Assembly (NCBI GenBank): GCA_964016885.1
Contig: CAXHJY010000480.1
Location: 1 to 64,000, forward strand
Source: Eledone cirrhosa
Taxonomy: Eukaryota
Length of the DNA stretch: 64,000 bases
Direction of reading: 5' to 3'
In this document: positions 2,321-47,354 of the stretch, piece by piece
Numbering within the stretch: the first letter of the stretch is position 1
Layout: the number at the start of each line of letters is the position of its first letter
The notes under the pieces: generated by a model
Seen by the model: only the letters and a program-made list of their open reading frames with translations
Database searches by the model: none
Told to the model about the DNA's origin: nothing
Position numbers and translations under genes: made by a program

Positions 2321-2432
2321 TCTTTCTATCTATGGCGGGTAAAATTCCGAGATCCGTTAAGGTGAAACAATTGTTCTGAGTATGAACTGAGTGCTCTACC
2401 ACTACGGATATTACCTTCCAGTGTTCTACCAC

Positions 2433-2464
<32 letters not shown>

Positions 2465-2493
2465 GTGGTAGAACACTGGAAGGTAATATCCGT
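2321..2493. mobile_element. Internally deleted copy of the hammerhead-bearing element at 3321-3624, with a partial inversion
   Basis: Shares ggcgggtaaaattcc-gagatccgttaaggtgaaacaattgttct and gaactgagtgctctaccactacggatattaccttcca with 3321-3490. Segment ~2403-2433 is inverted at ~2462-2493 across a TA spacer. Confidence 0.75.
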
Positions 2494-2513
2494 ATATATA
2501 TGTATATATATAT

Positions 2514-3301
2514 ATCATCATCATCAACATCAACGTTTAACGTCCGTGTTCCACGCTTGCATGGGTTTGGACGGGGGTAGTCCCACTTGAGGCAAGAGTG
2601 ATTGTCTTGCTCGCATAGGACTGTCTGGCAGGTTTTCTACAGTTGGATGCCCTTCCTAACACCAACCACATTTACAGTGTGGGTCTGGGAGGTTTTTACC
2701 GTGTTGCCTACACGGCCACATTACAGCGTGGACTGTGTGTTTTTTTGTCGTGACACCTACACGATCTCATTTGTTTCGGCCTGGATGGTGTGGCACCAAC
2801 ATAACTTTACATAGAAGGGGGCGGTGTGGATGGGGTGGGGGTGGTGGGATGGGGATGTATTTTGTTAGAGATGCCTACTGGCTGTAGTAGGTTTTACTTT
2901 GTATTTAGGTAAGGCGGGTCTTCTCTATTACTGAGTACCGCCAAAGGTCTCGGTCCAGTGACATTGTCTTGGTGAGGTGTAAGTCTGTGAGGTCGGAGTT
3001 TATCAGCTCGTCCAGGTTTTTCTGGGTCTGCCTATTCCGTGGCTACCGTCTATCTTTATTGCCCTGCACTTTGTTATACAGCTATCGTCCTTCATGCGCA
3101 TTACGTGACCATACCAACGTAGCCTTCTCTCTAGTAAACAACATCTGATCCCTCTTATTTCTAATTTTTTCCTTAGTTCGTTTATGCTTTGTCATTCACG
3201 TATATTACTATTACACATCCAGCGGAGCATGCAAGCTTCGTTTCTCTCTAGTCTGCGTATATCCTCTGCACACAATGCCCAGGTCTCACTGCCATGCAAC
3301 A
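2514..3301 (-). mobile_element. 5'-truncated RTE-clade LINE, family A
   Basis: (CAT)n tail followed by caacgtttaacgtccgtgttccacgcttgcatggg; minus-strand coding remnant [30 protein letters not shown]. Confidence 0.93.
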
Positions 3302-3320
3302 TGTATATATATATATATAT

Positions 3321-3624
3321 ATCTAAGGCGGGTAAAATTCCCGAGATCCGTATAACCATGCCCATTACGAGCTGAGGATCCGTTAAGGTGAAACAATTGT
3401 TCTCGGTATGGCGAATTAACTGTTGTGTAACCACTTCTACCTAACTCGTCCCATGAACTGAGTACTCTACCACTACGGATATTACCTTCCAGGAAGGTAA
3501 TATCCGTAGTGGTAGAGCACTCAGTTCTCGCCATACCGAGAACAACAATTGTTTCACCTTAACGCATCCTCAGCTCGTGATGGGCATGGTTATACGGATC
3601 TTGGGAATTTTACCCGCCTTAGAT
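3321..3624. mobile_element. Fold-back palindrome with a minimal hammerhead motif in each arm (Penelope-like element end)
   Basis: Inverted arms centred near 3491 (ccttcc-a-ggaagg); the left arm has an extra ~40 bp; TA tracts on both sides. Confidence 0.75.
3368..3405 (+). ncRNA. Minimal type I hammerhead ribozyme motif
   Basis: Stem I cgag/ctcg; core CTGAGGA; short stem II (cc-gttaa-gg); GAAA; palindromic stem III ACAATTGT. Mirrored on the minus strand at ~3537-3577. Confidence 0.7.
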
Positions 3625-3663
3625 ATATATACATATATATATATATATGTATATATATATATG

Positions 3664-3747
<84 letters not shown>

Positions 3748-3828
3748 TATATAACCTATGCTAGCGTGGAAAATGGACGTTAAACGAAGATGATGTGTGA
3801 TGATACATATATATATACATACATATAT

Positions 3829-4120
3829 ATCATCATCATCATTTTACTTCCACTTTTCCCTGCTTGCAAGGGTGGGACGGGAACTGATTCTGGCTTGATT
3901 TCTACAGCCGGATGCCCTTCCTCACACCAACCTCATTTACAGTGAGTGCTGGGTGCTTTTTGCCATGGCATCTACACGACCACTTTACAGCTGAGTAAAC
4001 TGGAGCAATGTGAAATAAAGTGTCTTGCTCAAGGAAACAACACATCACCCGGTCTGAGAATTGAACTCAAAACCTTTCGATTGCAAGGCCAATGCTCTAA
4101 CCACTAAGCCATGTGCCTCC
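3829..4120 (-). mobile_element. tRNA-derived SINE with RTE-type tail
   Basis: Head ggaggcacatggcttagtggttagagc (A box) and gagttcaattc (B box); tail cccttgcaagcagggaaaagtggaagtaaaatgatgatg. Confidence 0.9.
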
Positions 4121-4191
4121 ATATACATATATATATATATATTATATACATATATAATATATATATATATAATTTCTTCGAATGAAAAGAT

Positions 4192-4273
4192 CCTTCTGAC
4201 GAGAGTTTTTCTTTGCAACGGAGGCCGTATGGACTCCGTTTATTTTTGAGACTCGAAACCGATTCGGTAAAGG
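4192..4273 (+). ncRNA. Type I hammerhead ribozyme, copy 1
   Basis: Stem I cctt/aagg; core CTGACGA (4196-4202); long stem II gagttt...agactc with inner hairpin aacggag...ctccgtt; GAAA (4255-4258); stem III ccg-att-cgg; GTA cleavage triplet ending 4269. Confidence 0.88.
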
Positions 4274-4665
4274 TAACTATAGTAAGCAAAGTTAATTTTT
4301 TTTAATTTATTTTGAAACTTTTTCTTATTTGCTAAACCTTGATTATATATGTTCTGGCTCGTTAATTTATTAACCTACCATTGAACCACATTGGTTGGAC
4401 AATACATGTGTCCCTTAGCGCCATGTGCATGTAGGAACATATACTCTATTATTATTCTCCTCTTGGTTGAGAAAAAAATTTGGTCGTTCTGACTGCTGCT
4501 AGTTATAGCGGGAGCCGACTGACCTCCCTGCCTCCGCCTCTATCTTTACACTCGGCCCTTGAAAAAATTGATTCCACTTCATTTTCTCTCATCTCGGGAA
4601 CAATTTTGAATAGCGCCAGTTCGTAATTTGAATTCGAAAATTTTATATTCTTCGAATGAAAAGAT

Positions 4666-4746
4666 CCTTCTGACGAGAGTTTTTCTTTGCAACGGAGGCC
4701 GTATGGACTCCGTTATTTTTGAGACTCGAAACCGATTCGGTAAAGG
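4666..4746 (+). ncRNA. Type I hammerhead ribozyme, copy 2
   Basis: Same architecture: CTGACGA at 4670-4676, GAAAccgattcggTA ending 4742, then aagg. Confidence 0.88.
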
Positions 4747-4844
4747 TAACTATAGTAAGTAAAGTTAATTTTTTTTAATTCATTTTGAAACTTTTTCTTA
4801 TTTGCTAAACCTTGATGTATATAATATCTCTCTCTCTCTCTATA

Positions 4845-4896
<52 letters not shown>

Positions 4897-4898
4897 TA

Positions 4899-5850
4899 CA
4901 TCACCGTTTTACGTCCGTTCTTCCATGCTAGCATGGGTTAGACGGGTTGTCCTGTTGTGGGCAGTGTCTGGTCGGCTGACCATGCCTTGCTCATACAGGA
5001 ACTGATTTTGGCTTGATTTCTACAGCTGGATGCCCTTCCTAACACCAACCTCATTTACAGTGAGTGCTGGGTGCTTTTTTCCGTGGCGCCTACACGTCCA
5101 CTTTACAGTGTGGGCTGGGTGCTTTTTTGCCGTGGGAGGGTGTGGGGGTATATTGTCTATATGCTTCAGCTTGTACCCATGGGAGGTCGGGTACTCTGTA
5201 TTACTGCGTGACGCCAGGTCACGGTCGTGTGTCATCACCTTTGAGAGGTGTAATTGGGTAAAGTCGGCTTTTATCACCTCATCCCAGGTCTTCTTGGGTC
5301 TCCCCACTCCGCGGTTTCCATCGACTTCTAGTGCTCTGCACCTTTTTATGCAGCTGTCATCCTTCATACGCATCACAAGTCCATACCAACGCAACCGCCT
5401 CTACTGCACACAGCATTTGATTCCTCTTATGCTCAGTCTCTCTCTCAATTCGTTTATGCTTTGCCGTTCGCATATATTACTATTACACATCCATTGGAGC
5501 ATGCAGGCTTTGTTTCTTTCTAATCTACGTCAGTCTTCCACCTTCAGCGCCCAGGTCTCACTACCATGTAACATTGCTGTTCGGATACAAGCATCATACA
5601 GTCTGCCTTTCATTTTGAGGGAGAAGCCTTTTGCAGCTAGCAGTGGCAGTAGTTCCCTGAACTTCTTCCATTCCATTTTTACCCAGTTATTGTACTTTCT
5701 GAACACCCACCTTCGCTGCTAATTCAGTCACCTAGGTAGCAGAAGCTGTCTACTGTTTCTATAGAGCCCTCCCAGAGATTGGTGGTACTTGTTTCCTGTC
5801 ACTGTTTGCTGCTTGCTGCCCCAGCACAGCTGCTACGTGTGAAGCTAGTA
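4899..5850 (-). mobile_element. 5'-truncated RTE LINE, family B
   Basis: Tail catcaccgttttacgtccgttcttccatgctagcatggg; coding remnant [36 protein letters not shown]. Confidence 0.92.
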
Positions 5851-7104
5851 TTTAACAAAAATAATAGGCAGCCTTGGGGGGGGGGGGGGAGAAACATAAA
5901 TTGGCACAGTAAATTGAAAAGATATGGAGTATTTAGCTGGTGTTAGCCCAAATTAACTTTTTTTTAAAAATGGATATTGATATGCATAGGAAGAATATTG
6001 AAATAGTTTTAAAATGCAAGCAATTACATAGTGGAAGATTCCACCATGTAATTGCTTCAATTTTAATAAAGAGGCATGAATGAAGTCACTTGCCAAACAA
6101 GTTCAAGGTTGTTCATTATAATTAATGTAATTAATCTGTAATAAAAAATAAGTTGCTGTCATCAACTGCAGTAAAAATGTACATCTTTTTGTATCTGAGC
6201 TAGTGGCCTGGTGGTTGAGGTGCTGAACATATATATATATGATTATGAGGTTGTGGGTTTGATTACTGAACCAGGCAGCATGTTATGTTCTGAAGCAAAA
6301 TATTTTATTTTTACGGTGCTCCTTCTGCTAGGCATGAATTGTGACAAGCAGATAATATCAGCAATGGAAAAGACCAATGTAAACATTATTCACTTGGTCT
6401 GATCTGACAATCAAGTTCCCTAGAAGGATAACTTTGCATGAAGGTTTTTTTTTTGGTTTTTTTAATAGCACAAATTTTATATAATAGCAATATAACTTTG
6501 TTGAATGAAAGAAATGTTTTCAGAAATATAGGCTGTTCTTACCATATTTCTAATGAAACATGCTACCTATGAATTTTCAAATAATTTTGAAAATAAACCT
6601 TTGGAAAGATTTAATGAGATAACTAACTTTCCCATTATTAAGCTGATGTTTGGAACAAAGGTTCTCACATAAAATTATGATGGAAGGCTTATAGATAATA
6701 CAAACATTTTAAAATAAACAGCTTTGCATAATAGAACCTGGGATGGTTTCAGGTAGTTTGGTATCGAAAGGGTTAAACATTACTAAGCTGTATCAAGAGG
6801 TTGCAGAATAATAGCAAACTTAGTTCTCTAAGCAGTCACAGATGTATTAAAGAATATGTTTACAATCAAATAAATTGCTGCCATTTACTATGAAATCCAA
6901 ACCTTGCAAAACTGCTTTCATCACAGATTTATATAATATCTAGTACATAACTTGTTTTATGGAGGGAATAAGAATTATTCAATTTATTCACCACATGTGT
7001 GTGTGTTTGCATTAATATGTGTGCATCTAAATTTACATGTACAATGCGCAATTAACCCATTCTATTTATATATGTCCCATAACTGTTATCAACCATATAT
7101 CACA

Positions 7105-12074: not shown

Positions 12075-12192
12075 AATTTAATATAGAAATGGCTTCTACA
12101 GGACGAGGACTGTTTTATTCAAAAGAAATCATCAGGAAATCACTGGTAATTTCTTTTAAATAAAACAGTTCTAGACCTGTAGAAGCCATTTC
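12075..12192. repeat. Small fold-back (MITE-like) element split by an RTE insertion; right arm continues at 16262-16281
   Basis: aatttaatatagaaatggcttctacagg...cctgtagaagccatttc | RTE | agccatttctatattaaatt. Confidence 0.75.
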
Positions 12193-24725: not shown

Positions 24726-26686
24726 AAGAAACATGGACTGTATAGAGGAGCAGTAATTCTGAACAAAAACTAACAGAAGAACTTTAGTTTTGACAGACAT
24801 CTTTAAGTCCACACTATAAAGTAGTTAGTGACAAGGATATCCAATTAGTGAAATCATGCCAAAATTATGAAAAGCACATTTATGAAAAGAAAAAAATAAA
24901 GAACAATGAAAGACACACACAATAGTTCTACACATATCTCCACTTGATGGAGGAGTTTGATAAAACAAAAACAAAAGTAGGAGACAGCCTAGGACCTATT
25001 CTTCTGCACATTTTCCAAAATGATCATTAGATATTACACTCTGCCCTGCTTTCCTCTTATACTAATATAAACATACGTACCTACATTAACATGCTTATTC
25101 AGGCACTCAGTACTAATACACACATTTCTCCCTTACTGGTTAATATATATGCCATCATGTACAACTTAATTGATCAAATGTAATAATATTGTCCTTAGAG
25201 CAGGAAACCGAATAGTATGGAATTCCATGAACTCTTTCTCAGATACACAGTTTCTTCACGCTCCTAAAGTACAGGGCTAAGTTTACTGATGAGAAGAATT
25301 TATTTTCTAAGGAAAACATGCAAGATGAAAAGAAGGAAGTTAAACCCAGCAGCAGCACTATCCAAAATTGACTGCTATCCCCACCACCGAACAAACAGCT
25401 TGTTCAAGCATAAAACTCCAGACTGAAAGCAAATATGATACACACTCACACACACACACACACAAAGACTGGCAATTACAATGCAGTGAAAATTCATCAT
25501 CATCATGAGTAACAAAAGCTATTTAGCAATGAATGGCAGTAAAATAATTTCATCAAAAGTACAGTTTTCATCGAAATTAACAACTAGAAAGAGAAAATAA
25601 TAAAATACAAAAGAGAGAGATGGAAAGCCGACATTTCTATCAAACACTATTGGAGATGTAAATAAATGATAATTCCTTATATTGGCAGAAAACCAGAGAT
25701 TTGTAAGGGAGGAAATATAGTGATGAATTATTATTACAGAATTCGGCATGATTCAAACCAATGAGGACACGGAGACCTGCTAGAAATAACAACCAGATCT
25801 CCCTCAAACCATACTCTACTGTCTTAAAAATGAAAAGGCACATTGGATTATGAATGTAATCCTAGATATACAATCTATACCTGACAAAAAAGATGAGATT
25901 GACAAGGCTTGAATGCTTTTGATCATAGTTCTGCTGAGTCAACGCTGATCTTGGGATAAACAGCAACAACAACGATTTCTAACTGTGGGTTCAAAATCAC
26001 AAATATATAGGGGAAAACAGTATGGTTAATTTAATCAATTTATCTCATCGATCTTAAGTGGATGAAAGGCAGGCAAATCGACCCAACAAGATTTTAACTC
26101 CAGGAATGGTAAAAAGCAATATTTAATATTTACTCATTGTAATAATGGTTTCTTATATAGGCACAAGGCCAGTACTCATTGTAATAATGAAACTACATGG
26201 TTTCAAACGAGATAAATCCGGGTTTTATAATATCTGCCTCTTTTGAAAGATATTATTGTTTAGACCAAAGTTGCTGAAACTAGTGTGACTGACACGTCTT
26301 TTCAATACACTTTTTTTTAAAGAGTGTAGTGTATGATTTTGGGAAATATTTTACTGCGATTTTTAGAAGACAGGGCAATCACACATCTCGCATACGTAGG
26401 AGAAAGAGAGAGGTGAAACCAGATCTAGACTTGGCAAAAATCACCACCACCAGCGCTAAATCAACTATAATATCAGTTGTCCAGCAAGTAAATGTAACAA
26501 AATTATTCCACTAACATTAAAGCAATTATTGGTGGAATATACCTTATTTTATAGAAATAACAAAAATGTGCATGTGTGTACGTGCACACAAACACGTATA
26601 TGTGTATGTCAACAAAATGTGAGGCGAAAATTAATAAGGGAGTGCTCTGTTATAAGGTGTATACAAATAGTGTCTCTCATTCATAT

Positions 26687-27579: not shown

Positions 27580-27611
<32 letters not shown>

Positions 27612-30165
27612 CTAGCAAATGACCCCCGTCCATTGGACGGTGTCAGTTCTTGGTAGGGCTGCAATGTTAATGGTCAATTTCCGTGTTGTATGTTTAACTT
27701 GGAGGATAATTTTACCTGATCAACTCTTTCAATAAAAAAAAATGAGACGGTATTCAAAAAGAGCAACTTTTATTTACAGATATGTGTCATTAAAATGTGA
27801 ACATAGAGAAATGTATCGTTAGCCGTGTCGGTTGAACAATGTGTAATTTTTTTTATTAATAACCGAAAGACAAACAGTAAATGAGACTGGATGTCAAACC
27901 ATTTTGGATTGCATGTAAAGGTGATAAAAAGATCAGGACGGCCACAATGGTGGACATAGGTCAGAGCATCCTGCATTTTTTCATGCATGTAACGGGGGCC
28001 TCCAGTGTATGATGATGGGAGAATAACAGAAAGCCCAACATCCGAAGCATTAGTCTGATCATTTCGGTTTACTTCGTCACGTAGATTGCCGTATTCTTCT
28101 GAACGCAGTTCCTTTTGATGATGTCTTATCCATTGGAGGCGTTCAGTGTCAATCTTAGCAAATATGTCTACACAGTATTGATTGAGGAGCATCCGTGTTC
28201 TATGCAGAATGTTGACGTCGTTTTTGCGAAACATAAGTCTAAATGCATAAAATTCCATTTGTGAAATGGTTTTCCCTGGTGTAAGATGCATTAAACTTAC
28301 AGGATTACACTTTTGCAAATCAATGCGGTAGCCATCGTCGCCAAAGGGGAACAGCAATGGATACTGGAGAGCATCATATGCGGGATGAAGTTCATTTATT
28401 TTTTTGAAGATGCGAGTCCTGCCATTCAATAACAATATCACGGTTTGAAGCGCTCTCATTAGGACGTGTTATAATCACCGCAACTTCATCGGTTTGGGGT
28501 CTATTAAAGCAACCCTGATGCTGCCCTGGTGGAGCGCGGTCATTTCGAATGACAACCTTGTATTGATTCTTGTTAGCATCTCTACGTTGTAAAGCAGTTT
28601 TGAAAATGGTGATGTACGGGTTTATGGAATGAAGCATATATTGAAGGGACTGTAGAAGAGAAGGTGTCGTTCCTTTAGCAACTGAATGACATACTACCAA
28701 TGATGATATGTGGATGGGATGCGTAGTCCTCTTGGGGATTGTATTGAAAACCTTTCTTAGACCAGTAACAGGAAGAATCCCTCGGAAAGACATAAGTACG
28801 CATTTTCCGTTGAGAATCAGCCGCAAGCCTTGTTGCCCTTTGGTCAACAGTCTCTAAAGCACGGCTATTGGAATTAGAAGCAGCATTGTGAGCACGCCGG
28901 AGTTCTGCTTGTTCAGCTTTCTGTAATGCTCTGATGTTCAAAGTAGAGGCAGCATTGTGAGCACGCCGGAGTTCTGCTTGTTCAGTTGTTTGTAATGCTC
29001 TGGCGATCGAGGTAGAAGCAGCATTGCGAGCACGCCGTAGCACACATTGTTCTTCTGTTTCGCTTGCGCGCAAAGAACGCAAAGCAAAAGCATTTTTTGT
29101 TTTTTTTTCAATGTTACTCTTTCTTTTTCGAGGCATTCTACCGAAAATATGTAATTGAATAAAGCTGATACAGATCAATTAAAAGAAATAAATAGTTGTG
29201 TACAATGTGTAAATTTTGTAATAATAAGCAAGACGAAAAAGTATATTTTATCATCTGCTTTTTCTACACGGGAATTATATATTAGATTTTCATACTTACA
29301 AAATAATTTTGCTAATATCGTGTTTAGCAGTGTCGGTTGAGCAATGTGTAAATATTTGATTAAAAACTAAAAGACAAACAGTAAATATATTTCAACCTCT
29401 GAATAAGTATTAAAGAAATGACGATTTTCACTTTGAAAATATGATTTATGACATCAAAACTGCTTTAGCGTTTAATTTTTTGAATAAAAAGTATCGTCTG
29501 TTATTTCTTACAATTAACACATTTATACACATACACACACACATACGCACGTACACACACACACACAAACACACACAAACACACACACAAACATACACAC
29601 GCACACACATACATACACACACAATCCCAAGACGTGACGTTGTGGAAGAGAGAGAGTTAAGAAGTGTAATAAATAAGTTAAAATTATAAACGCTGTATTT
29701 ATCATATTCGCGTCACACACACTCCTCTCTTTCTTTATTTTACTCTCTCTCTCTCACTCCTCTCTTTCTATCTCCCTCCCACACATCCTTCTCTCTCTGG
29801 CCGTTATGGAAATTACACACACACATACACACACACGCATGCACACATACACACACATATACACACGCACATACACATACAATCCCATAACGTCGTGTTG
29901 TGGAAGGGGGAGAGTTAAGAAGTGTGTAAAAGGAACGCTCTCTCTCTCTTTATGGCCGTCATGGAATTTGTTAGTGCAAAAGTCTATAAGATTATAAAAT
30001 TGAAGTTTGTGACTTTGAAATTAATCATTATGAAATAAATTTTTCTTGATGTTACAAACCGTAGCCTATTTTGGCTGTGTTTAATTTGACAGAGATCGAT
30101 GGAATATTTTCCAAGTGAAACTCTTTTACACACACACACAGAACGGGAATTATATATATAAAAGA
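27612..30165 (-). mobile_element. Helitron, internally deleted (Rep N-terminal part only, no helicase)
   Basis: 3' end: hairpin ccgtcc-att-ggacgg (27626-27640), then CTAG (27612-27615), then T, within (AT)n. Rep motifs HPAYDALQYPLLFPFG and LPSSYTGGPRYM...PDLFITFTCNPKW. The 5' boundary near 30160-30165 is approximate. Confidence 0.9.
27880..29136 (-). pseudogene. Frameshifted Helitron Rep fragment with N-terminal 23-aa repeats
   Basis: ORFs 28675-29178 (MPRKRKS, ET.EQ...RR repeats), 28392-28847 (FNRPQTDEVAVII) and 27770-28459. Confidence 0.88.
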
Positions 30166-30238
30166 GCATCTGTAGTACCAATCATGAAACCAAACTGCAC
30201 CTCGTCTAATTTGGCTCTTTCACTCATTAGTTGCACTA
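30161..30238 (-). mobile_element. Tiny RTE RT fragment
   Basis: Minus strand reads QLMSERAKLDEVQFGF...TTDAL, homologous to [16 protein letters not shown]...TTDAL. Confidence 0.7.
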
Positions 30239-30775: not shown

Positions 30776-31005
30776 CATCATCATCATCATCATCATCTTA
30801 TGTCCACTTTTCCCTGCTTGCAAGGGTGGGACGGGAACTGATTCTGGCTTGATTTCTACAGCTGGATGCCCTTCCTAACACCAACCTCATTTACAGTGAG
30901 TGCTGGCTGGTTTTTGCCGTGGCACCTACACGACCACTTTGTGGAATGAGTAAACTGGAGCAATGTGAAATAAAGTGTCTTGCTCAAGGAAACAACACAT
31001 CACCC
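30776..31005 (-). mobile_element. SINE copy lacking its head, ending in a fold-back
   Basis: Tail and body as in the other copies; inversion point at ~31005. Confidence 0.85.
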
Positions 31006-31169
31006 GAGTGATGTGTTGTTTCCTTGAGCAAGACAAACAAGAGGATGTAATAACAAAGTCGTATTAGTTTCACGGTTAGAGGAAGAAATAGATATATACA
31101 TACATACACACACACACACATATATTATTTTTTTTTTTTTTTTTTTTTTTTCCTTGCCGCAAATGTTTG

Positions 31170-32295: not shown

Positions 32296-32820
32296 TGTTA
32301 CACTTTGGGAGGGTCATGCTGCCAATAAGAAACACACGCACCAGTTGCTTTCACTTCAATTTAATTTATTAAATATTTATAAATTTACAAATTTATAAAT
32401 TTCTGGTTGGTTGGTTGGTTCCACAACCAGATAGTTGTTTATATATATATAGTCATAGTTCTTTCGTCACACACTCTGTGACCTCTTCAGTGACTGGGGA
32501 TTTCTTTCTTCGTTTCTGTGCCTTTCCTTTCTTCTATCCTACGCCATTTTGTTTGACAAACAAAATGGCGTAGGATAGAAGAAAGGAAAGGCACAGAAAC
32601 GAAGAAAGAAATCCCCAGTCACTGAAGAGGTCACAGAGTGTGTGACGAAAGAACTATGACTATATATATATAAACAACTATCTGGTTGTGGAACCAACCA
32701 ACCAACCAGAAATTTATAAATTTGTAAATTTATAAATATTTAATAAATTAAATTGAAGTGAACGCAACTGGTGCGTGTGTTTCTTATTGGCAGCATGACC
32801 CTCCCAAAGTGTAACAATAT
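32292..32820. mobile_element. Near-perfect 529-bp palindrome with a hammerhead motif in each arm (Penelope-like element end)
   Basis: About 264-bp arms centred on 32556 (gtttg-a-caaac); almost no mismatches. Confidence 0.85.
32617..32661 (+). ncRNA. Minimal type I hammerhead ribozyme motif
   Basis: Stem I agtca/tgact; CTGAAGA; one extra G; stem II gtcaca/tgtgac; GAAA; g-aa-c; CTA site. Mirrored on the minus strand at 32451-32495. Confidence 0.72.
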
Positions 32821-32876
32821 CGGTTTCAACACACGATTTCAGATAAAGAATCTTGCTAAACAAATTCAGAAACGAA

Positions 32877-33103: not shown

Positions 33104-33192
33104 CGAACTTGTGAGTACATTTTCCTTTAACTACAAATTATTATTATATACTTTCGTCTTTTCATTAACTTAATTAATTTCAAATAACCAGA

Positions 33193-33225
<33 letters not shown>

Positions 33226-33612
33226 CTCATATTTATATATATACGCTTCTCACTCACACACAAGAAAAACAAAAAACAAAAAAAAAATAAATCAAAAATA
33301 AATTTAAAAAAAAATATATATATATTGAAATACTTAACTAAAACACACACACACGAACTTGTGAGTACATTTTCCTTTAACTACAAATTATTATTATATA
33401 CTTTCGTCTTTTCATTAACTTAATTAATTTCAAATAACCAGAATATACATATATATATATATATATACTCATATTTATATATATACGCTTCTCACTCACA
33501 CACAAGAAAAACAAAAAACAAGAAAAACAAAAAACAAAAATAAATCAAAAATAAATAAAAATAAAAAAAAAAATATATATATATTGAAATACTTAACTAA
33601 AACACACACACA
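33104..33612 (+). repeat. Tandem duplication of ~250 bp in the LINE 5'UTR
   Basis: cgaacttgtgagtacattttcc... at 33104 and 33354. Confidence 0.92.
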
Positions 33613-33624
33613 CTCAAAACTAGA

Positions 33625-34791
33625 ATGGCTAACCAGCAAAAATCCAAACAGAACTGGTCTGATAATGAAATCGACATTCTAATAAACACATGGCATTGCC
33701 TTTCCCAAACAGAAAATATAGATGCTTCATCTCTGAACGACATTGCTAAACGTACAGTTCAATTTTTGAAAACTCGATCTGAACAACAGATTCAAAATAA
33801 ATTAAAGCAAATCGAAATTGCTTTTAAATTAATCAATAAACATTTGGATAAACTACGGTGTGTTTTCTCTTCAAATGCTGTCCAGCAGCAGCAACAACAA
33901 CAACAGCAGCTACAACAGCAACAACAACAACAGCAACAACAACAACAACAGCTACAACAACAACAACAGCAACAACATCAACAACAACGACAACAACAGT
34001 GTGAACCACTCCTTGATTCATCAACAATGGCCGATCTACTAAATGAAACTATTGACCCCCCAGTGGCCTCTGTCTCACAGCATGAAACGCCACATCCTTT
34101 CTCTGGCCCAGCAGTCCAATCATCACCACTGCCAACATCTCTGCCTACTACTACTACTACTACTACAACATTTTTGTCTACTGCTATGTCAAGGAATTTA
34201 CCTTCTAATACCAGAACAAGAACTCTCCCTCCCACAGTCCACAAAGGTCGTCAAATCCTACCCAAACCATCATCTACACCTCTCACAACACCCACACCCA
34301 CATACCCACCCACTCGAAACCCCATCATTTGCCGCTACTCTCTACGCTATAGAATATGTACGGATAGTGGCTGCAAATTCACCCATTTACCTAGGACAAA
34401 ACGATCTATCCCCACAAACAGCCACCACCATAATACATACTCTAATTTAACACCAACACAACCACCAATAACTCAAACAAGGAATCCACAAATCTGCCGT
34501 TTTTCCCTGCGAGACAGATTGTGTTTAGACCGGGATTGTCCCTTTACCCATCTCCCGGGGACCCGTCGGATAAATGAAAATAAAATTAAAAATAAAAGCA
34601 AAAACAAAAACCATAACCTACATAAAAATAACCACTACCACAGTCACCAACAGTCTTCTAAACAGGAAACTTCTTCCTCTTTTTTAGCCATAATGAATCT
34701 GGCAAAAGAACTGGAAAAAAACATTCGAGCTATCACCCAGCACCACCCTCCACTATCACCCCACTGCACAAACTCCCATTGCTGCCATTAA
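33625..34791 (+). CDS. LINE ORF1 protein (Myb/SANT-like N-terminus, polyQ, two CCCH zinc fingers)
   Basis: NWSDNEIDILINTW...RSEQQIQNKLKQI; Q-tract; CRYSLRYRICTDSGCKFTH and CRFSLRDRLCLDRDCPFTH; lies directly upstream of ORF2. Confidence 0.85.
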   Translation: MANQQKSKQNWSDNEIDILINTWHCLSQTENIDASSLNDIAKRTVQFLKTRSEQQIQNKLKQIEIAFKLINKHLDKLRCVFSSNAVQQQQQQQQQLQQQQQQQQQQQQQLQQQQQQQHQQQRQQQCEPLLDSSTMADLLNETIDPPVASVSQHETPHPFSGPAVQSSPLPTSLPTTTTTTTTFLSTAMSRNLPSNTRTRTLPPTVHKGRQILPKPSSTPLTTPTPTYPPTRNPIICRYSLRYRICTDSGCKFTHLPRTKRSIPTNSHHHNTYSNLTPTQPPITQTRNPQICRFSLRDRLCLDRDCPFTHLPGTRRINENKIKNKSKNKNHNLHKNNHYHSHQQSSKQETSSSFLAIMNLAKELEKNIRAITQHHPPLSPHCTNSHCCH

Positions 34792-37700
34792 CAAACAAAC
34801 AAATTAACAACACACCAAAACAATTAAAACCATCCACTCTCGCCTCTACATTTTTGCTTAACGCCCAAGGCATCAGCCCTTCCACCAATACTCAAAAATG
34901 GAAGATCAAATTCCTGGAGGACTGGATTGATGTCCATCCAAACCACATCCCTTTCTTCGTCCTCACTGAAACCCATCTCAGTAACCTCCACTTGGAAGCC
35001 GAGGTGAAAGTGAAAAATTTCAAAGCCATCCGTGCTGATCGCGCTGGCAGAAGAAAGGGCGGAACTGCCATTTATGTCCATAATTCTTTCTCAACAGAGG
35101 CTATGAACATATTCACTAATGGATACTGTGAGGCAGTCACTGTATTCAGTCAAACCAACAACCTATTAGTAGTTGGGCTCTATAGGCCACCCCAAACGCC
35201 TGTACCATGCTTCAAGGAATGCCTCAACAGCATAAAGTGTTTCATCCAAGAGTGTCACCCTGACAACATCTTGATGATGGGGGACTTCAACCTCCCCGGA
35301 GTTGACTGGTCCACAAACACCCTGCCACCAGGTTCTTCTGCCTCAACCTCTGACAGGGAAGCTGTGGAATCGCTTCTTGACTTCATGGATGATTTCTTCC
35401 TATCCCAACTAGTGCTCGAACCAACGAGGTGCCACAAAAACGTCCTAGATTTAATTTTCAGCAATCACACTGACAATATCCACAATATTGCAGTGGAGAA
35501 AACTCTACTCTCTGATCATGACATGGTTCTCTGTGATCTGAGTTTCCACCGTCCAATATACAAACCCAATGTCATTTCTCCTGTCCATCCGTTTGACGCT
35601 ATGGATTTCCACAATGCAAACTGGGAAGCGATCAGTCATGATCTTGCACATGTCGACTGGTCCTTCACGCACACTCATACACCCACTAACATCAAAAAGT
35701 CCTGGCAGACATTTGTGGACACTGTTACAAACATATGTGCTAAACACACCCCATTAAGAACTATAAACAAATCTAAGAGCAGAATCCCTAGAAATAGAAA
35801 AACACTCATCAGAAAAATTAAGAGAACGAACAAAAAAATCAACAAGCTGAAATACTGTCAGCAGCAACACATCAACTTGACTGCCATTTCATCACTAGAG
35901 ATTAAAAAACATAACCTCCAAAACAACATAATGTCCCTCATCAACAATCAGAGAAGAGCTGAAGAGGCCTGGGCCATTGAGAAGATCAAACTCAATCCCA
36001 AAGTGTTCTTTTCATTTGCAAAAAAACACAAAATCACTGGCTCTACTGTTGGCCCTCTAATTGATGAAAATGGCACTCTTCAAGACAATGCTAAAACCAT
36101 GGGTGAGATACTGCAGAAACAATACTGCTCTGTTTTCAGCAATCCTGATATGGCCGATCTGGGCTGTATCGGCGATGTTACTCCCCATTACACCTTATCG
36201 GACATAACGTTTGGCGCCCCTGATGTCTTGGCGGCAATAAAGGAAATCAAGCATAATTCAGCAGTAGGTCCCGATAGGTTCCCTGCTTGTGTCTTGAAGG
36301 CGTGTCAACACCAACTTGCTTCTCCTCTTGCCAATCTGTGGCGGAACTCACTGGATGCTGGATATGTGCCAGAAAACCTTCTATCCCAGTCTGTTGTCCC
36401 AGTTTTCAAAAAGGGAAACAAATCCCTTGCCGTGAATTACCGTCCAATCTCACTCACCTCTCATATCATTAAGGTATTTGAGCGAGTGGTGAGATCGCGA
36501 ATGACCCACTTCCTTGAGAGTAACAATATGCTGAACTCCAACCAGCATGGATTCCGTAATGGAAGGGATTGCCTGACGCAACTACTGCATCACTTTGATG
36601 ACATTTTGAGAGCCTTGGGAGAGGGTTCCAACACTGATGTTATCTACCTTGATTTCAGCAAGGCCTTTGACAGGGTTGATCATAACATTCTACTGAGAAA
36701 GCTGTCCAATATTGGTGTCACTGGAAAGCTGCTGCAGTGGATCAAGAGCTTCCTGTCAAACAGAACCCAACATGTTGTAGTTGAGGGAGTCAAATCAAGC
36801 CCAGCCAAAGTCAGTAGTGGAGTCCCACAAGGCACTGTGTTGGGCCCACTTCTCTTCATCATCTATATTAATGACATCACTGACATCATCAAACACAGCA
36901 ACATTAAAATTTTCGCTGATGATTCCAAGCTCCAAAAGGTCATCAATGGCGTGGATGACCGGATAAGCCTTCAGTCAGACCTACTGGCTGTTACCCAATG
37001 GGCAGAAAAGAACAACATGTTACTGAACGAAGATAAATTCGAACTGATCCACTTTGGAAAAGAGGATGCTCTGAAACTCCCGTACTCCCTTCCCTCCGGG
37101 GAAACTCTCGTGGCATCTAACAACATCAGAGACTTGGGAGTAACCGTGGACAGCAACATAAGCTGGACCACGCATATAAGCAGCAAAGTTGACATGGCCC
37201 GCAGAATGTGTTCCTGGATCCTCAGAACCTTCCAGTCGAGAGATTCCCGCACCATTATCCTTCTCTTCTCTACTTTCGCCCGACCACACCTTGAATACTG
37301 TTGTCCACTGTGGTCTCCCCACACGAAACAAAGTATCATGAAACTTGAAGCTCCTCAAAGGGCAATCACGAAAAAGATAGATGGCATGTCAGACCTTGAC
37401 TACTGGGGTCGATTGGAAAACCTGAAACTTTACTCACTCCAACGTCGCCGTGAGCGTTATATTATCTGCATGATGTGGAAAATGTTCCATCATCACTGCC
37501 CAAATGATGTTGGCATCGCCTTCAAGATACACCCAAGGCTTGGGCCCCGTGCTATCCGTCCCATTCAAAAATCTAAATCGCAACTCATAACAACAATACG
37601 GCACAATTATTTCACCTCAATCGGCCCTGCTCTCTTCAACATCACACCAGGACACGTCAAAACAGAAACTGACCACACAAAATTCAAGAAGTCTTTGGAC

Positions 37701-37799
37701 AAATTCCTCCAAGTAATCCCGGACAAACCACCCACACCCGGATATGTCTCCGCAAACAGTAATTCTCTTCTCGAATGGGCCATGGTGCCCAAATCCTGA
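34779..37799 (+). CDS. LINE ORF2, AP endonuclease + reverse transcriptase (1006 aa, uninterrupted)
   Basis: LNAQGI, LTETHL, YRPP, GDFNLP, LDL, SDH; [52 protein letters not shown]. True start uncertain because there is no ATG before the endonuclease motifs. Confidence 0.95.
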
Positions 37800-39023: not shown

Positions 39024-41734
39024 ATACAGCTGTCGTCTTTCATGCGCATCACGTGACCATACCAACGTAGCCTTCTCTCGAGTAAACATCTGATCCCTCT
39101 TATTTCTAATTTTTTCCTTAGTTCGCTTATGCTTTGCCGTTTACGTATGTTACTATTACACATCCAGCGGAGCATGCAAGCTTCGTTCCTCTCTAGTCTG
39201 CGTATATCCTCTGCACACAATGCCCAGGTCTCACTGCCATGCAACATTGCTGTTCGTATGCAGGCATCATACAACCTGCCTTTCATTTTTAGGGAGAACC
39301 CTTTAGCAGCTAATAGTGGTATAAGCTCTCTGAACTTTTTCCATCCAGTTCTGACTCTAGCTACTGTACTTTCAGAGCACCCTCCCACACTGCTGATTTT
39401 GTCACCCAGTTAACGGAAGCTGTCCAATTTCTATAGAGCCCTCTGCGCAGTTGTAAGAGCTAGTATTTTGTGGGCACTTGCTGCTACTTATTGCACCAGA
39501 GCACCGGCCACATGTTAAATCTATGTTCTTAGTTAGCTTACCTGTGATCCCACTACACCTTTTATGCACCCATACCTTGAATTTGGGACATAAAACGGAG
39601 TTTCTACCTACGCCTTTCCTACACACTGAGCATGGCCATTTCCCGGAAGGGACGGCCGCCTTATTTTCTTTCCGACAAACTAGAACTTTAGTCTTAGCCA
39701 GGTTAATTTTAAGGCCTTTTGATTCTAGGCCGTGCTTCCATGTTTGGAATTTCTTCTCTAGCTCGGCCATTGATTCAGCTATGAGTGTCAGGTCGTCTGC
39801 GTATAGGAGTTCCCATGGGCAGCCGGTCTTGAACTCCTCTGCTATAGCCTGAAGGGCAATAATAAATAGTAGGGGGCTGAGAACAGAGCCCTGATGGACG
39901 CCAACTTTTACGCTAAACTCTTCACTATATTCGTTGTTAATTCTAACCTTGCTGACTGTTTCTTTATACATGGCTTGTATAGCTCTCACAAGCCATTCGT
40001 CGACACCTAGTTTTCTAAGGGCCCACCAGATAATGGAACGGGGGACTCTGTCGAAGGCTTTCTCCAAGTCGACAAAAGCTAAGTAGAGGGGTTTACCTTT
40101 AGCTAGGTACTTCTCCTGTAGTTGTCGTACAATGAAAAGAGCATCTGTGGTACTTTTGCCTGACACAAACCCGAACTGCATTTCATCTAGGTCAATTCTC
40201 TCTCTGATTAGTTGCGCTATTACTTTTTCCGTGACCTTCATGACCTGGTCGATTAATTTAATGCCTCTATAGTTACTCCTATCTAGGGCATCTCCTTTAC
40301 CCTTATAACAGTTAACGATGATGCTGCTATGCCAGTCCTTCGGAACAACCCCATTCTGTACGACTTGGTTAACTATCCGGGTGACCATGGTGTGTCCCAC
40401 CGTGCCAGATGCCTTCAGCATCTCAGCAACTATTTCCGAAGGCCCAGCCGCCTTACCCGTCTTCATATCCTTGATTGCCTTACTTATTATACTACCCTCG
40501 ACTAACACTGCTGGTCCCTCTATTGGGTCGATGTGGGGGAGACTGTCTTTCTCCCATTTATTCTCCTCATTTAGTAGCCTTTCATAGTGACACTTCCAAG
40601 CTACCTTCTTATCAGCGTCGGTGATTGGCAAGTACGTCGTCATCATTAAGTACACACTTCTCCCCGACAATATCACGGTTTTCCTTGACACATTGCCTAG
40701 CAATCCTGAACACCTCACGTTTTTGGTCCTCGCGTTGTAGAACATGCTTGAACTTTCTTTCCTCTGCTTCCCTTCTTGCGAAGTACACTTGTCTCCTAGC
40801 TTCCCTCCTGGCCACTTGATAGTCTTCTCTACTTCCCCCATCCCGCCATACTTTCCAAGCCTGCTTTTTGGCCTTAATTGACCCCTCCACCTTACTGTTC
40901 CACCACCATGTTACTCTCCTCCTGCCTACAGGCCTGCTCCAGCCACAGACTTCGTCTGTCGCCATCAGCAGGTTTGCTTACAGAAATTCCCACTGTCCCT
41001 CTATATTGTCCGACTCTAAATGCTCTTCCTTACTGTCGAAAGCATCAAGTAATATGCTTTTTAAATTTATTTCTGGCTGTGGGGTCCTTTAGCTTCCATA
41101 TTTTTCTCCTGAGGATAGTCCTCTTCTGCTGTCGAGTACGTCTCGTCCTGACTATGAGGTCGCTAATTATCAGTCTATGTGGGGAGATGCATTCTTCATG
41201 GGGGAGGGATTTAGTGTTTACAACAGACACTCTGTCACGTCTTCTGGTAAGGATATAATCTACCTGGCTTATGTGTTCCCCGGATCTATAGGTAATCAGG
41301 TGATTGTCACGTTTTTTGAAGTTAGTGTTACAGATAGTTAGGTTATTTGCGTCACAGAATTCCAGGATTCTGGAGCCTTCCTCTCATTTCTAGTACCACC
41401 CAAAGCCTCCATGGATTTCGTCGTAGCCGTCACAATGTTGTCCAACGTGACCATTTAGGTCGCCTGCAATAATTATATAGTTACTGTCAGATATTTGGGA
41501 GGTAGTAAGCAACAGTGTCTCATAGAATCTGTCTTTTATAGTGCCGGGCAGGCCGGATTGGGGTGCGTACGCAGATATTACTGTCACCGTAGTTCTATTG
41601 AGGACAAGTCTTATTTTAATTATTCTATTCACTCTATTTACGTCTATTATCTTATCTGCCCACTTTTCTGCTACCATGATTCCTACTCCACCCAGCCCAT
41701 CGTCGTTTCCCACCCAGAAAAGCTTATAACATCG
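39024..41734 (-). mobile_element. RTE family A internal segment, cut by TA arrays at both ends
   Basis: Runs from the APE region ([12 protein letters not shown]) through RT (LYADDL) to MRMKDDSCI; no 3'UTR or tail; several frameshifts. Confidence 0.94.
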
Positions 41735-42988: not shown

Positions 42989-43033
<45 letters not shown>

Positions 43034-43067
43034 CATATATATATATACATATATATAGTATATATAC

Positions 43068-43130
<63 letters not shown>

Positions 43131-43131
43131 C

Positions 43132-43176
<45 letters not shown>

Positions 43177-43243
43177 CATATATATATATACATATATATA
43201 TATATACATATATATACATATATATATATATACATATATATAC

Positions 43244-43290
<47 letters not shown>

Positions 43291-43291
43291 C

Positions 43292-43356
<65 letters not shown>

Positions 43357-43419
43357 TACACATATATATATATACATATATATATATATACATATATATA
43401 TATACATATATATATATAC

Positions 43420-43466
<47 letters not shown>

Positions 43467-43734
43467 CATATATATATATACATATATATATATACATATA
43501 TATATATACATATATATATATACATATATATATATACATATATATATATACACGTATATATATACACATATATATATACACATATATATATATACATATA
43601 TATATATACATATATATACACATATATATATACATATATATATATACATATATATACACATATATATATATACATATATATACACATATATATACATATA
43701 CAATATACATATATATACACATATATATATATAC

Positions 43735-43780
<46 letters not shown>

Positions 43781-43888
43781 ATATATATATATACACATAT
43801 ATATATATACATATATATATACACATATATATATATACATATATATATATACATATATATATATACATATATACATATACATATATAC

Positions 43889-43919
<31 letters not shown>

Positions 43920-44116
43920 CATATATATATATACATATATATATATACATATATATATATACATATATATATATACATATATATATATACATATATATAT
44001 ATACACGTATATATATACACATATATATATACACATATATATATATACATATATATATATACATATATATATATACATATATATATATACATATATATAT
44101 ACATATATATATATAC

Positions 44117-44161
<45 letters not shown>

Positions 44162-44198
44162 CATATATACATATACATATATACATATATATATATAC

Positions 44199-44243
<45 letters not shown>

Positions 44244-44272
44244 CATATATATATACACATATATATATATAC

Positions 44273-44323
<51 letters not shown>

Positions 44324-44324
44324 C

Positions 44325-44377
<53 letters not shown>

Positions 44378-44392
44378 CATATATGTATATCC

Positions 44393-44425
<33 letters not shown>

Positions 44426-44468
44426 CATATATATATATACATATATATATATACATATATATATATAC

Positions 44469-44499
<31 letters not shown>

Positions 44500-44500
44500 C

Positions 44501-44577
<77 letters not shown>

Positions 44578-44578
44578 C

Positions 44579-44625
<47 letters not shown>

Positions 44626-44644
44626 CATATACACATATATATAT

Positions 44645-44679
<35 letters not shown>

Positions 44680-44806
44680 TATATATCATCATCATCATCA
44701 TCATCATATTCATATATATATATATATATATATTCATATATATATATATATATATTCATATATATATATATATATATATTCATATATATATATTCATATA
44801 TATATA

Positions 44807-44842
<36 letters not shown>

Positions 44843-45098
44843 TATATATATATATATATATATATTCATATATATATATATAGTCATATATATATATATA
44901 TATATATTCATTCATATATATATATATATATATATTCATATATATATATATATATATTCATATATATATATATATTCATATATATATATATATATTCATA
45001 TATATATATATATATATATTCATATATATATATATATATATATTCATATATATATATATATATATATTCATATATATATATATTCATATATATATATA

Positions 45099-45144
<46 letters not shown>

Positions 45145-45166
45145 TATATATATATATATATATATA

Positions 45167-45202
<36 letters not shown>

Positions 45203-45244
45203 TATATATATATATATATGAATATATATATATATATATATATA

Positions 45245-45280
<36 letters not shown>

Positions 45281-45610
45281 TATATATATATATATATATA
45301 TTCATATATATATATATATATATATATATTCATATATATATATATATATATATATTCATATATATATATATATATATATATTCATATATATATATATATA
45401 TATGAATATATATATATATATATATTCATTCATATATATATATATATATATTCATATATATATATATATATATGAATATATATATATATATGAATATATA
45501 TATATATATTCATATATATATATATATATTCATATATATATATATATTCATATATATATATATATATATTCATATATATATATATATATATATATTCATA
45601 TATATATATA

Positions 45611-45650
<40 letters not shown>

Positions 45651-45691
45651 TATATATATATATATATATTCATATATATATATATATATTC

Positions 45692-45741
<50 letters not shown>

Positions 45742-45821
45742 GAATATATATATATATATATATGAATATATATATATATATATGAATATATATATATATA
45801 TATTCATATATATATATATAC

Positions 45822-45877
<56 letters not shown>

Positions 45878-45879
45878 TC

Positions 45880-45956
<77 letters not shown>

Positions 45957-45960
45957 TATA

Positions 45961-45994
<34 letters not shown>

Positions 45995-46065
45995 TATATT
46001 CATATATTCATATATATATATATATATATATATTCAACTATATATATATTCAACTATATATATAT
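42980..46065. repeat. About 3.1-kb composite TA array (TATACA, then TATTCA/TGAATA variants)
   Basis: The variant changes at an embedded (ATC)n run at ~44684-44708. Confidence 0.96.
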
Positions 46066-46782
46066 TTAACTACTTTTCCCATCTTGACGTTATAGTCGCA
46101 TATATGTTATAGAATGCCGTTAGCTTCTTCCTAAAACAATCTCTATACCTCTCATTTATATTTATACTCGGATTCTTTTCCTAGAGTGCTTAAACTATCT
46201 GTGACTAATCCCGGTTTTTTTCATAAAAACTGTGATAATTATTGCTATTTTGCTGAACTCCTTTGTAGAGTTTTTTTTCAGAATGTATTTGACTGCTATT
46301 TCTTGTAAATAAACATTCACTTCCATCCTGACGTCACTAGCCCCGTTTTTTCCTCATGTGCTTTTTCATAAATACACATGAAGGCGAACTAGCCAGTTTT
46401 AGAATTCACTTTTTCGGATTATACTACTGTGAGAGCCCTGGTTTCTGTTGAGCTCTGCTGATGAATGAAATCCAACCGTGACCATCTCCACTGAAAGTTT
46501 TCATGAAATAGTCTTTTAAGACTATACAGAGCATTTGATGTTATTCCAAATTGAAGGATAAGTGTTTCAAACTTTATTTTATCATGAGTTAAAGGTCTAT
46601 AGATTTTTCCCTGGATTTTACTAAATTCTGTGGATGAATTTATATCCTGATTCTCTTTTGAGATGAGTTTGAGTTATTTTTCCTAAATCTTTCGTTAACT
46701 ACTTTTCCCATCTTGACGTTATAGTCGCATATATGTTATAGAATGCCGTTAGCTTCTTGCTAAAACAATCTCTATACCTCTC

Positions 46783-46789
<7 letters not shown>
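46066..46789. repeat. Unclassified segment with ~95-bp terminal direct repeats
   Basis: ttaactacttttcccatcttgacg...ctctcatttata at 46066 and 46695 (period 629). Confidence 0.8.
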
Positions 46790-46818
<29 letters not shown>

Positions 46819-46822
<4 letters not shown>

Positions 46823-47134
46823 AAAGTTTTTATTAGCCGACAATGTTTCGTCCTATTAAGGACTCATCAGGGCAATCAAAACAACAAGAAGTAATATCGG
46901 CAGATACAAGCCGGCTTGTATCTGTCGATATTACTTCTTGTTGTTTGATTGCCCTGATGAGTCCTTATAGGACGAAACATTGTCGGCTAATAAAAACTTT
47001 TGATGTATTAAAGGATTCTTTGTTTTACTCTCTTAATTTTTTGGCTCTGTTTAACTGCATTGAGCTATACCTTTTACTGTCATTTCTATAATACGAAGAG
47101 GGTGTTTAACTCCAACACGCTCCAGTATTCTAAT

Positions 47135-47181
<47 letters not shown>

Positions 47182-47187
47182 TATATA

Positions 47188-47222
<35 letters not shown>

Positions 47223-47348
47223 ATTAGAATACTGGAGCGTGTTGGAGTTAAACACCCTCTTCGTATTATAGAAATGACAGTAAAAGGTATAGCTCAATGC
47301 AGTTAAACAGAGCCAAAAAATTAAGAGAGTAAAACAAAGAATCCTTTA

Positions 47349-47354
<6 letters not shown>
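46819..47354. mobile_element. Double fold-back element with hammerhead motifs (Penelope-like element end)
   Basis: Palindrome 46819-47004 centred on agccggct; second inverted repeat ~47003-47138 / 47217-47354 around a TA spacer. Confidence 0.82.
46948..46991 (+). ncRNA. Minimal type I hammerhead ribozyme with canonical core
   Basis: gcc-CTGATGA-gtcct-tat-aggac-GAAA-c-att-g-TC-ggc; GTC cleavage triplet ending 46984. Mirrored on the minus strand at ~46833-46876. Confidence 0.88.

Follow-up and report, generated by a model that had tools for sequence, protein, structure and literature searches.

TA-associated repeats with predicted hammerhead ribozymes in an Eledone cirrhosa contig: probable insertions by Penelope-like enzymes

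Hammerhead motifs and the repeats that carry them

We analysed 64,000 nucleotides of Eledone cirrhosa DNA (assembly GCA_964016885.1, contig CAXHJY010000480.1, positions 1 to 64,000 of the forward strand; referred to below as the window) and found in them six families of repeats, A to F, five of which contain a complete predicted hammerhead ribozyme. Self-BLAST revealed no similarity between the families, in agreement with the initial annotation of this DNA, which was made from the letters alone and described its motif-bearing elements as unrelated. The cores that it listed, CTGAGGA at 3372, CTGACGA at 4196 and 4670, CTGAAGA at 32622 and CTGATGA at 46954, are all in place. A descriptor of the type I hammerhead, which demands the core, a stem I of at least 3 bp, stem II, the A15.1-U16.1 pair and an NUH cleavage site, matched the window eight times (at 3372, 4196, 4670, 32622, 46458 and 46954 on the plus strand, and at 32490 and 46870 on the minus strand). 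As a control, local dinucleotide shuffling was repeated 300 times on the 51.4 kb that remain once large TA arrays are set aside; it gave a mean of 0.03 matches and a maximum of 1, and none of the 300 reached 5. The bare core was only slightly enriched (32 observed, 24.8 in shuffles) and, therefore, the signal sits in the stems. The full type I arrangement (CUGANGA ... GAAA ... NUH, three stems, stem I open) is found in A, B, C, D and F.

About ten motif copies had been counted in the initial annotation. Seven of these pass the descriptor, while the arm of family A at 3573 and both arms at 16587 fail it; an eighth motif, at 46458, had been overlooked. The degenerate fifth motif proposed at 16587 belongs to family E, where CTTATGA replaces the core in both arms, and fails even a scan that allows one mismatch in the core, which itself added no motif in the window. 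A descriptor scan of the window for the type III hammerhead (type II was not scanned) also returned none. Sequence differences between stems of the same topology had been thought to act like covariation; unrelated families collected by a pattern, however, do not constitute covariation. None of the eight motifs was called in the window at the Rfam gathering score, and a whole-window Rfam search by E-value was flooded by hairpin models; the Rfam cut-offs thus overlook all the motifs described here. Loose cores at 25286, 48774 and 63717 were rejected, as they lack stems. The last of them (63717-63750) is a hammerhead-like core beside a TG tract, with a stem II that has U.U at its base and without stem I.

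Families C and D are head-to-head fold-backs with one-sided ends (Table 1). The centre of C is flanked by 206 perfectly mirrored bases, and its ribozymes read outward. Its hammerhead has an extra base after A9, a G10.1-C11.1 pair, a 6-bp stem II, a 5-bp stem I and a stem III of 2 bp closed by a non-palindromic AA loop. An open frame runs from the ATG at 32795 through the tail into the TA tract (32795-32876), as expected if this end holds the start of the frame of a Penelope-like element (PLE). In D, the right arm is extended by 133 nt (47005-47137), and AATAAA is found at 46989, just 3′ of the hammerhead. The inverted copy of this extension starts where the left arm of D stops. Within 46821-47352, one and the same base (47003/47004) divides the minus-strand sequence of D into pieces that lie at opposite ends of the locus, a layout that equals a circular permutation of a full palindrome.

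Family A is a tail-to-tail pair, with a right arm that is missing 40 nt present in the left. Its hammerhead has a 2-bp stem II with U.U at the base and a palindromic stem III (dimer type); on the opposite arm (3573, minus strand), a G.G mismatch breaks the 2-bp stem II, and stem III contains 3 inserted nucleotides. The deletion in A0 takes out the first half of the hammerhead core. The left arm of the decayed family E continues to TA, and its right arm stops just before the 3′ end of a long interspersed nuclear element (LINE). In A, C and D the motifs are located within about 50-260 nt of the element ends; in B they form part of the terminal repeat.

Not every motif-bearing element is a palindrome. 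B and F are direct repeats of more than one unit, and F had been missed altogether. The terminal direct repeats of B (168 nt, 98% identical; monomer of 473 nt, 37% GC) each contain one predicted ribozyme, on the same strand and 473 nt apart. The hammerhead B1 has a 52-nt stem II arm containing an inner hairpin and a stem III of 4 bp. Family F (terminal repeats of 91 nt, 90/91 identical; monomer of 629 nt, 33% GC) has a single predicted hammerhead in mid-element, with a stem I of 6 bp, a 40-nt stem II arm and a stem III of 6-7 bp (monomer type). Immediately 3′ of the predicted cut sites of B there are splice-donor-like motifs (4270-4290 and 4743-4763); PLE terminal repeats can contain introns.

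The 3′ ends of B, C and F, unrelated as they are, share TTGCTAAA (at 4802, 32853 and 46757), which begins 20-26 nt ahead of the 3′ end in each. An 8-mer common to three of the six ends arose in 28 of 20000 shuffles and in 124 of 20000 random AT-rich sets, figures computed after the sharing had been spotted. The 8-mer occurs seven times in the window, and in F its second base differs in 185 of 343 reads of sequencing run X13. We regard the shared sequence as a hint only.

Table 1. Hammerhead-bearing repeats and other repeats of the window (cut sites are predicted)
Feature	Position	Strand	Description
A0	2322..2433	+	Internally deleted copy of family A, from alignment to the A left arm
Inverted 3′ end of A	2465..2494	-	30 nt; tail-to-tail with A0 across a TA tract
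Family A	3323..3622		Tail-to-tail inverted pair; outer ends identical, on TA
Predicted type I hammerhead A	3368..3405	+	Core 3372-3378; cut after 3401 (GUU)
Mirrored hammerhead A	3537..3577	-	Stem II broken; fails descriptor
Family B	4172..4826	+	Non-coding, between TA tracts; 1.39 units of a 473/474-nt monomer
Predicted hammerhead B1	4192..4273	+	Cut after 4269 (GUA)
Predicted hammerhead B2	4666..4746	+	Cut after 4742
Family E	16367..16678		Decayed head-to-head fold-back; arms 16436-16678, 87.5% alike
Family C	32296..32820		Near-perfect head-to-head fold-back, 99.4%; 1-nt spacer at 32556
Predicted minimal hammerhead C	32617..32661	+	Cut after 32656 (CUA)
Mirrored hammerhead C	32451..32495	-	Identical
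Tail of C	32821..32876	+	One-sided, 56 nt, right side only
Family F	46066..46785	+	Between TA tracts; 1.15 units of a 629-nt monomer; multi-copy
Predicted hammerhead F	46452..46532	+	Cut after 46526 (AUA)
Family D	46821..47137		Head-to-head fold-back (46821-47004, centre 46912/46913) and extension; multi-copy
Predicted hammerhead D	46951..46987	+	Near-canonical; cut after 46984 (GUC)
Mirrored hammerhead D	46836..46873	-	
Inverted copy of D extension	47220..47352	-	Exact, 133/133; faces the extension across (TA)n
RTE-like LINE subfamilies (many copies)	2515-3302, 18205-19624, 39027-41449, 47442-50884, 53306-60905, others		ATC-repeat tails; C-terminal PHD finger
Short hairpin repeats	6009-6066, 12086-12192, 17462-17529, 30976-31035		No hammerhead core
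Helitron fragment	27600-30170		Pfam Helitron_like_N, E 1.8e-34; with 69-nt tandem repeat
AT-rich 250-nt unit	33104-33613		Two copies, immediately ahead of the intact LINE
Apparently intact LINE	33601-37799		396-aa frame, then 1045-aa endonuclease-reverse transcriptase frame

Copies in sequencing reads and predicted folding

Reads and contigs were mapped to 46066-47137, which covers D and F. In run X1 this region attracted 1443 contigs (331 at least 99% identical, 406 at 95-99%, 482 at 90-95% and 224 below 90%), and in run X13 it attracted 4764 of 12.5 million reads, a depth that does not give copy number. D and F are diverged multi-copy families. Runs X4 and X7 gave eight contigs and one contig, mostly at least 95% alike, and no comparison between species was obtained. 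A joint that goes back 629 nt is present in one contig of each of these two runs and may be a collapsed terminal repeat rather than an array. Two X1 contigs extend past the fold-back centre of D at 46912, and 93 X13 reads (three starts) fold back at a different point, 46857/46967; the 5′ (inner) end of D is, therefore, variably truncated between copies. One X4 contig covers 46967-47137 and, therefore, the extension belongs with D. Read ends of X13 at 46549/46552, 46627 and 47035/47038 were taken as restriction ends, since all fall on AATT, and were left unused together with their loose ends. Pattern scans for F and D in metagenomes, for A in viral contigs and for B in prokaryote genomes gave no match in any case.

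Three of the substitutions shown for D and F fall within plus-strand ribozymes: 46984 C>T retains an NUH site, 46503 A>G changes a U-A pair to U.G, and 46465 A>T puts U.U at the base of helix II. Among the 12 indels shown of 22 listed, five are inside ribozymes, where they lie at loop II of D or in the T run closing loop III of F.

When the motifs of B and F were folded in isolation, the hammerhead was the lowest-energy predicted structure. Those of A, C and D did not form fully, as expected of dimer-type motifs. In a context of 170-230 nt, stem II was predicted at 0.85-1.0 for B, C and D, at 0.15 for F and at 0.01 for A. Inclusion of both arms brought the pairing probability of all hammerhead stems of A, C and D down to 0.00, because the arms pair with each other. 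The initial annotation had suggested that, if the region is transcribed, palindromic copies put a potential cleavage site on both strands. This is doubtful, given the predicted loss of the stems in read-through RNA of A, C and D and the report that minimal hammerheads of PLEs depend on a second copy for cleavage and are weakly active even in dimeric form (PMC4209133). The mirrored ribozymes at this locus are probably silent, and read-through RNA would form one long hairpin; in C and D, transcription would reach the complementary arm ahead of the ribozyme, which would thus be masked during synthesis.

Release of a monomer from this locus would, by contrast, be possible for B alone, with its two ribozymes on the same strand. 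As a modelled circle, F would fold better than its shuffles (z = -3.85), B weakly so (z = -1.94; 25 shuffles each) and A not at all (z = -0.06; 100 shuffles). B and F, whose motif is unusually extended, would be candidates for the production of circular RNA, and they are the only leads worth pursuing.

TA tracts and the origin of the insertions

TA arrays make up about 21% of the window, all of which is repeat-rich animal DNA, and the remainder is largely a young LINE family encoding an endonuclease, a reverse transcriptase and a PHD finger. Of the 16 ends belonging to A0, A, B, C, D and F, 15 are at most 3 nt from a TA tract and the sixteenth at most 15 nt (for comparison, 1% of non-TA positions come as close as 5 nt). 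The count is partly circular, since about half of these ends are recognisable only from the tract; those that a mirror or a direct repeat defines likewise adjoin TA. The arm ends of E are 69 and 311 nt away. The preference for (TA)n that had been noticed from the sequence thus holds for the hammerhead elements but is not specific to them, as 10 of 16 LINE 3′ ends (found by pattern) adjoin TA too. TA tracts are a landing ground common to both kinds of element in this window, and the bias of PLEs towards microsatellite or AT-rich targets is seen here in the LINE as well. Copies of the RTE-like LINE also frequently sit inside TA arrays.

We think it likely that the six repeats are insertions made by PLE enzymes into TA microsatellites, and that the hammerheads are the ribozymes of PLE terminal repeats. 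A GIY-YIG endonuclease would nick TA-rich DNA, and the free 3′ end would prime reverse transcription near the 3′ end of the element, with synthesis usually ending early. Paired events would yield head-to-head stubs with a one-sided tail (C, D and probably E), and B, F and probably A would be non-coding passengers of the same machinery. Since B and F contain sequence from both sides of the cut site beyond one unit, they would have been copied past one unit length from a tandem or a circle, with an uncleaved tandem transcript and a ribozyme-cut, re-ligated circle about equally probable. C, D and E show the head-to-head inverted copy beside a 5′-truncated copy that is typical of endonuclease-positive PLEs, and a hammerhead within a terminal repeat, another PLE trait, is present too. 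The proposal that these are ribozyme-bearing retroelement ends in TA tracts is supported, and D and F occur in multiple copies in independent runs, but the pattern as such had already been published (PMC4209133, PMC8557442, PMC3846280, PMC7229834). The find stands, and the initial annotation read it broadly correctly; what it shows, however, is a footprint familiar from PLE-type retroelements. The copies behave like PLE ends and retrozymes, and we assign them to no PLE clade.

Several observations weigh against this reading. As the initial annotation had stated, no Penelope frame is linked to the motifs: in a Pfam search of the window, none of 23 long frames and none of 166 short frames from outside LINE and TA stretches matched a PLE reverse transcriptase or GIY-YIG domain, and all reverse transcriptase matches lie within LINEs. 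The PLE partner is, therefore, inferred. The frame in the C tail found no homologue in one search, and a second gave three weak matches, none of them a PLE (two have unrelated Pfam domains and one has none). The one-sided extensions of C (56 nt) and D (133 nt) exceed the published PLE tail of 30-40 bp, and the tail-to-tail layout of A, with fixed outer ends, is the rarer one. Three of the four motifs searched alone (3372, 46458 and 4196) matched no Rfam hammerhead model, and in the 170-230-nt context the prediction for stem I is low for every motif (0.00-0.12). The test of core conservation is weak as well: although no core base is hit among the 40 substitutions shown of 154 listed for D and F, fewer than one would be expected in the core at the average rate. 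Consensuses built from two sets of loose ends (of 356 and 256 reads, with agreement of 0.49 and 0.93) do point to an exchange of G-C for A-U in the first pair of stem I of F, but the two sets may derive from different molecules.

A more ambitious proposal treats B and F as retrozymes that are present at high copy number and represent a novel structural type, whose units are excised, circularised and copied back into TA tracts, with TTGCTAAA as the mark of a single element's reverse transcriptase that moves them both as well as C. We regard this as doubtful. If true, the new type would have a hammerhead that is active as a monomer, its stem III being stable and its long stem II arm bearing an additional hairpin, and the 8-mer common to B, F and the PLE stub C would tie invertebrate retrozymes to PLEs directly at the sequence level.

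The alternative that the elements are SINE-like passengers (SINE, short interspersed nuclear element) of the RTE-like LINE, rather than of a PLE, is improbable. The LINE is abundant and young, many of its copies being 95-99% alike in self-BLAST, it encodes both an endonuclease and a reverse transcriptase, its 3′ ends adjoin TA as noted above, and LINEs have been named as possible mobilisers of retrozymes (PMC7229834). However, the hammerhead elements show no resemblance to the LINE in self-BLAST, none of them carries its ATC-repeat tail, and the combination of a fold-back with a one-sided tail is described as unseen in non-LTR (LTR, long terminal repeat) insertion (PMC8557442).

The palindromes A, C, D and E could also be fold-back DNA transposons or miniature inverted-repeat transposable elements (MITEs) that target TA and captured a ribozyme once, with B and F as separate satellites. 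The target of Tc1/mariner elements is TA, the outer ends of A are identical and lie directly on TA, and the arms are predicted to form long perfect hairpins. We hold this to be quite improbable, as copies of D fold back at varying points and continue past the centre of the copy seen here, the tails of C and D are one-sided, A0 is a one-armed copy of A, and the four palindromes have no terminal sequence in common; terminal inverted repeats fixed in all copies, as in MITEs, fit A alone. It is, finally, highly improbable that the motifs resemble hammerheads by chance, or that sequencing or assembly produced the palindromes as fold-back artefacts, a suspicion raised by the perfect mirror of C, the exact duplication of the D extension, the failure to reach any Rfam gathering score and the lack of a read, among those shown, across this copy's own D centre, and answered by the shuffles, by the differences between the arms of A, D and E and by the presence of both D and F families in X1 and X13, with a different fold-back joint in X13 (one that ligation in a restriction-site-associated DNA library could mimic).

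The other repeats of the window include a tRNA-derived SINE, of which the hairpin repeats at 17462-17529 and 30976-31035 are fold-backs. The 396-aa frame of the apparently intact LINE shows a weak Myb/SANT-like match and a CAA repeat. In a LINE protein search, the named relatives were from amphioxus and Hydractinia (56-62%), in addition to one metagenome bin labelled as bacterial.

Relation to known hammerheads, Penelope-like elements and retrozymes

Small hammerhead variants were reportedly described in PLEs by Lunse in 2017. As it stands, the significance of the find is slight: hammerheads at PLE ends number thousands per genome in many animals, in many families that are mostly frameless, and include motifs paired on opposite strands at distances of 100-700 bp (Cervera and de la Pena 2014, PMC4209133). 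The window resembles this picture in its several sequence-distinct, mostly frameless families and in its opposite-strand pairs, here 84-201 nt apart. The motifs have the same type I topology, stem III being palindromic or very short in families A, C and D, and C has the marks of the minimal PLE form in that paper, namely the extra base after A9, G10.1-C11.1, a long helix II and a short helix I. In contrast to it, A has U.U and F has A-U rather than G-C at 10.1-11.1, and loop III of C is non-palindromic. B and F depart further: their stem II arm measures 40-52 nt, where the published helix II has 7-8 bp, and their stem III is stable. In that paper, a large helix III is ascribed to fungal and protist PLEs (PMC4209133). 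The Rfam family Hammerhead_1 (RF00163) is matched by D below the cut-off, over the whole model, when 46954 is searched alone (23.8 bits, cut-off 34, E 0.00035), and not by A, B or F. For hammerheads in cephalopods, octopus included, the article texts searched (supplements, Repbase and Dfam were not covered) yielded only Craig 2021 and a squid genome paper that annotates 235 Hammerhead_1 loci (PMC6962438), and a repeat annotation for octopus reports 31 PLE families as recently active, with ribozymes absent from its main text (PMC13282606). Families A to F may, thus, already be catalogued.

Insertions of endonuclease-positive PLEs are known for inverted 5′-truncated copies, a one-sided tail and a bias to microsatellites (Craig 2021, PMC8557442), with head-to-head as the commonest layout (Arkhipova 2013, PMC3846280). 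A purified PLE protein cuts AT-rich DNA on both strands, and the enzyme starts at two internal sites that bound the tail (Frangieh 2024, PMC11167929). Our copies share with these systems the 5′ truncation, the head-to-head inverted copy, the one-sided tail, partial tandems and AT-rich, microsatellite targets. They differ in the absence of a reverse transcriptase or GIY-YIG frame, in longer tails and in the tail-to-tail position of A, A0 and the D extension, and no clade can be assigned. The ribozyme of the PLE studied in PMC11167929 requires protein and is dispensable for insertion, and no RNA-seq ends were observed at its cut site.

Non-LTR retrozymes have been proposed to be derived from, and moved by, PLEs (Cervera and de la Pena 2020, PMC7229834; Li, Clavereau and Pollet 2026, bioRxiv 10.64898/2026.07.22.740005), and a review agrees on this link (PMC6765202). 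In the preprint, one of nine tested elements cleaved, and movement through circles by PLE enzymes was left untested outside vertebrates. Should circular RNAs be made from B and F, the two would represent a larger type of retrozyme with an extended structure and offer a test of whether PLE enzymes move retrozymes through circles. The U.U at the base of helix II has a counterpart in an axolotl retrozyme that does cleave (PMC7229834). B and F, in turn, resemble non-LTR retrozymes in their non-coding unit of a few hundred nucleotides with one type I hammerhead, in a GC content below 50% and in copies of more than one unit. Rather than arrays, however, they form 1.39 units with two ribozymes (B) and 1.15 units with one (F), and their units of 473 and 629 nt are above the 150-450 nt given in PMC7229834 but within the 51-972 nt of the 2026 preprint.

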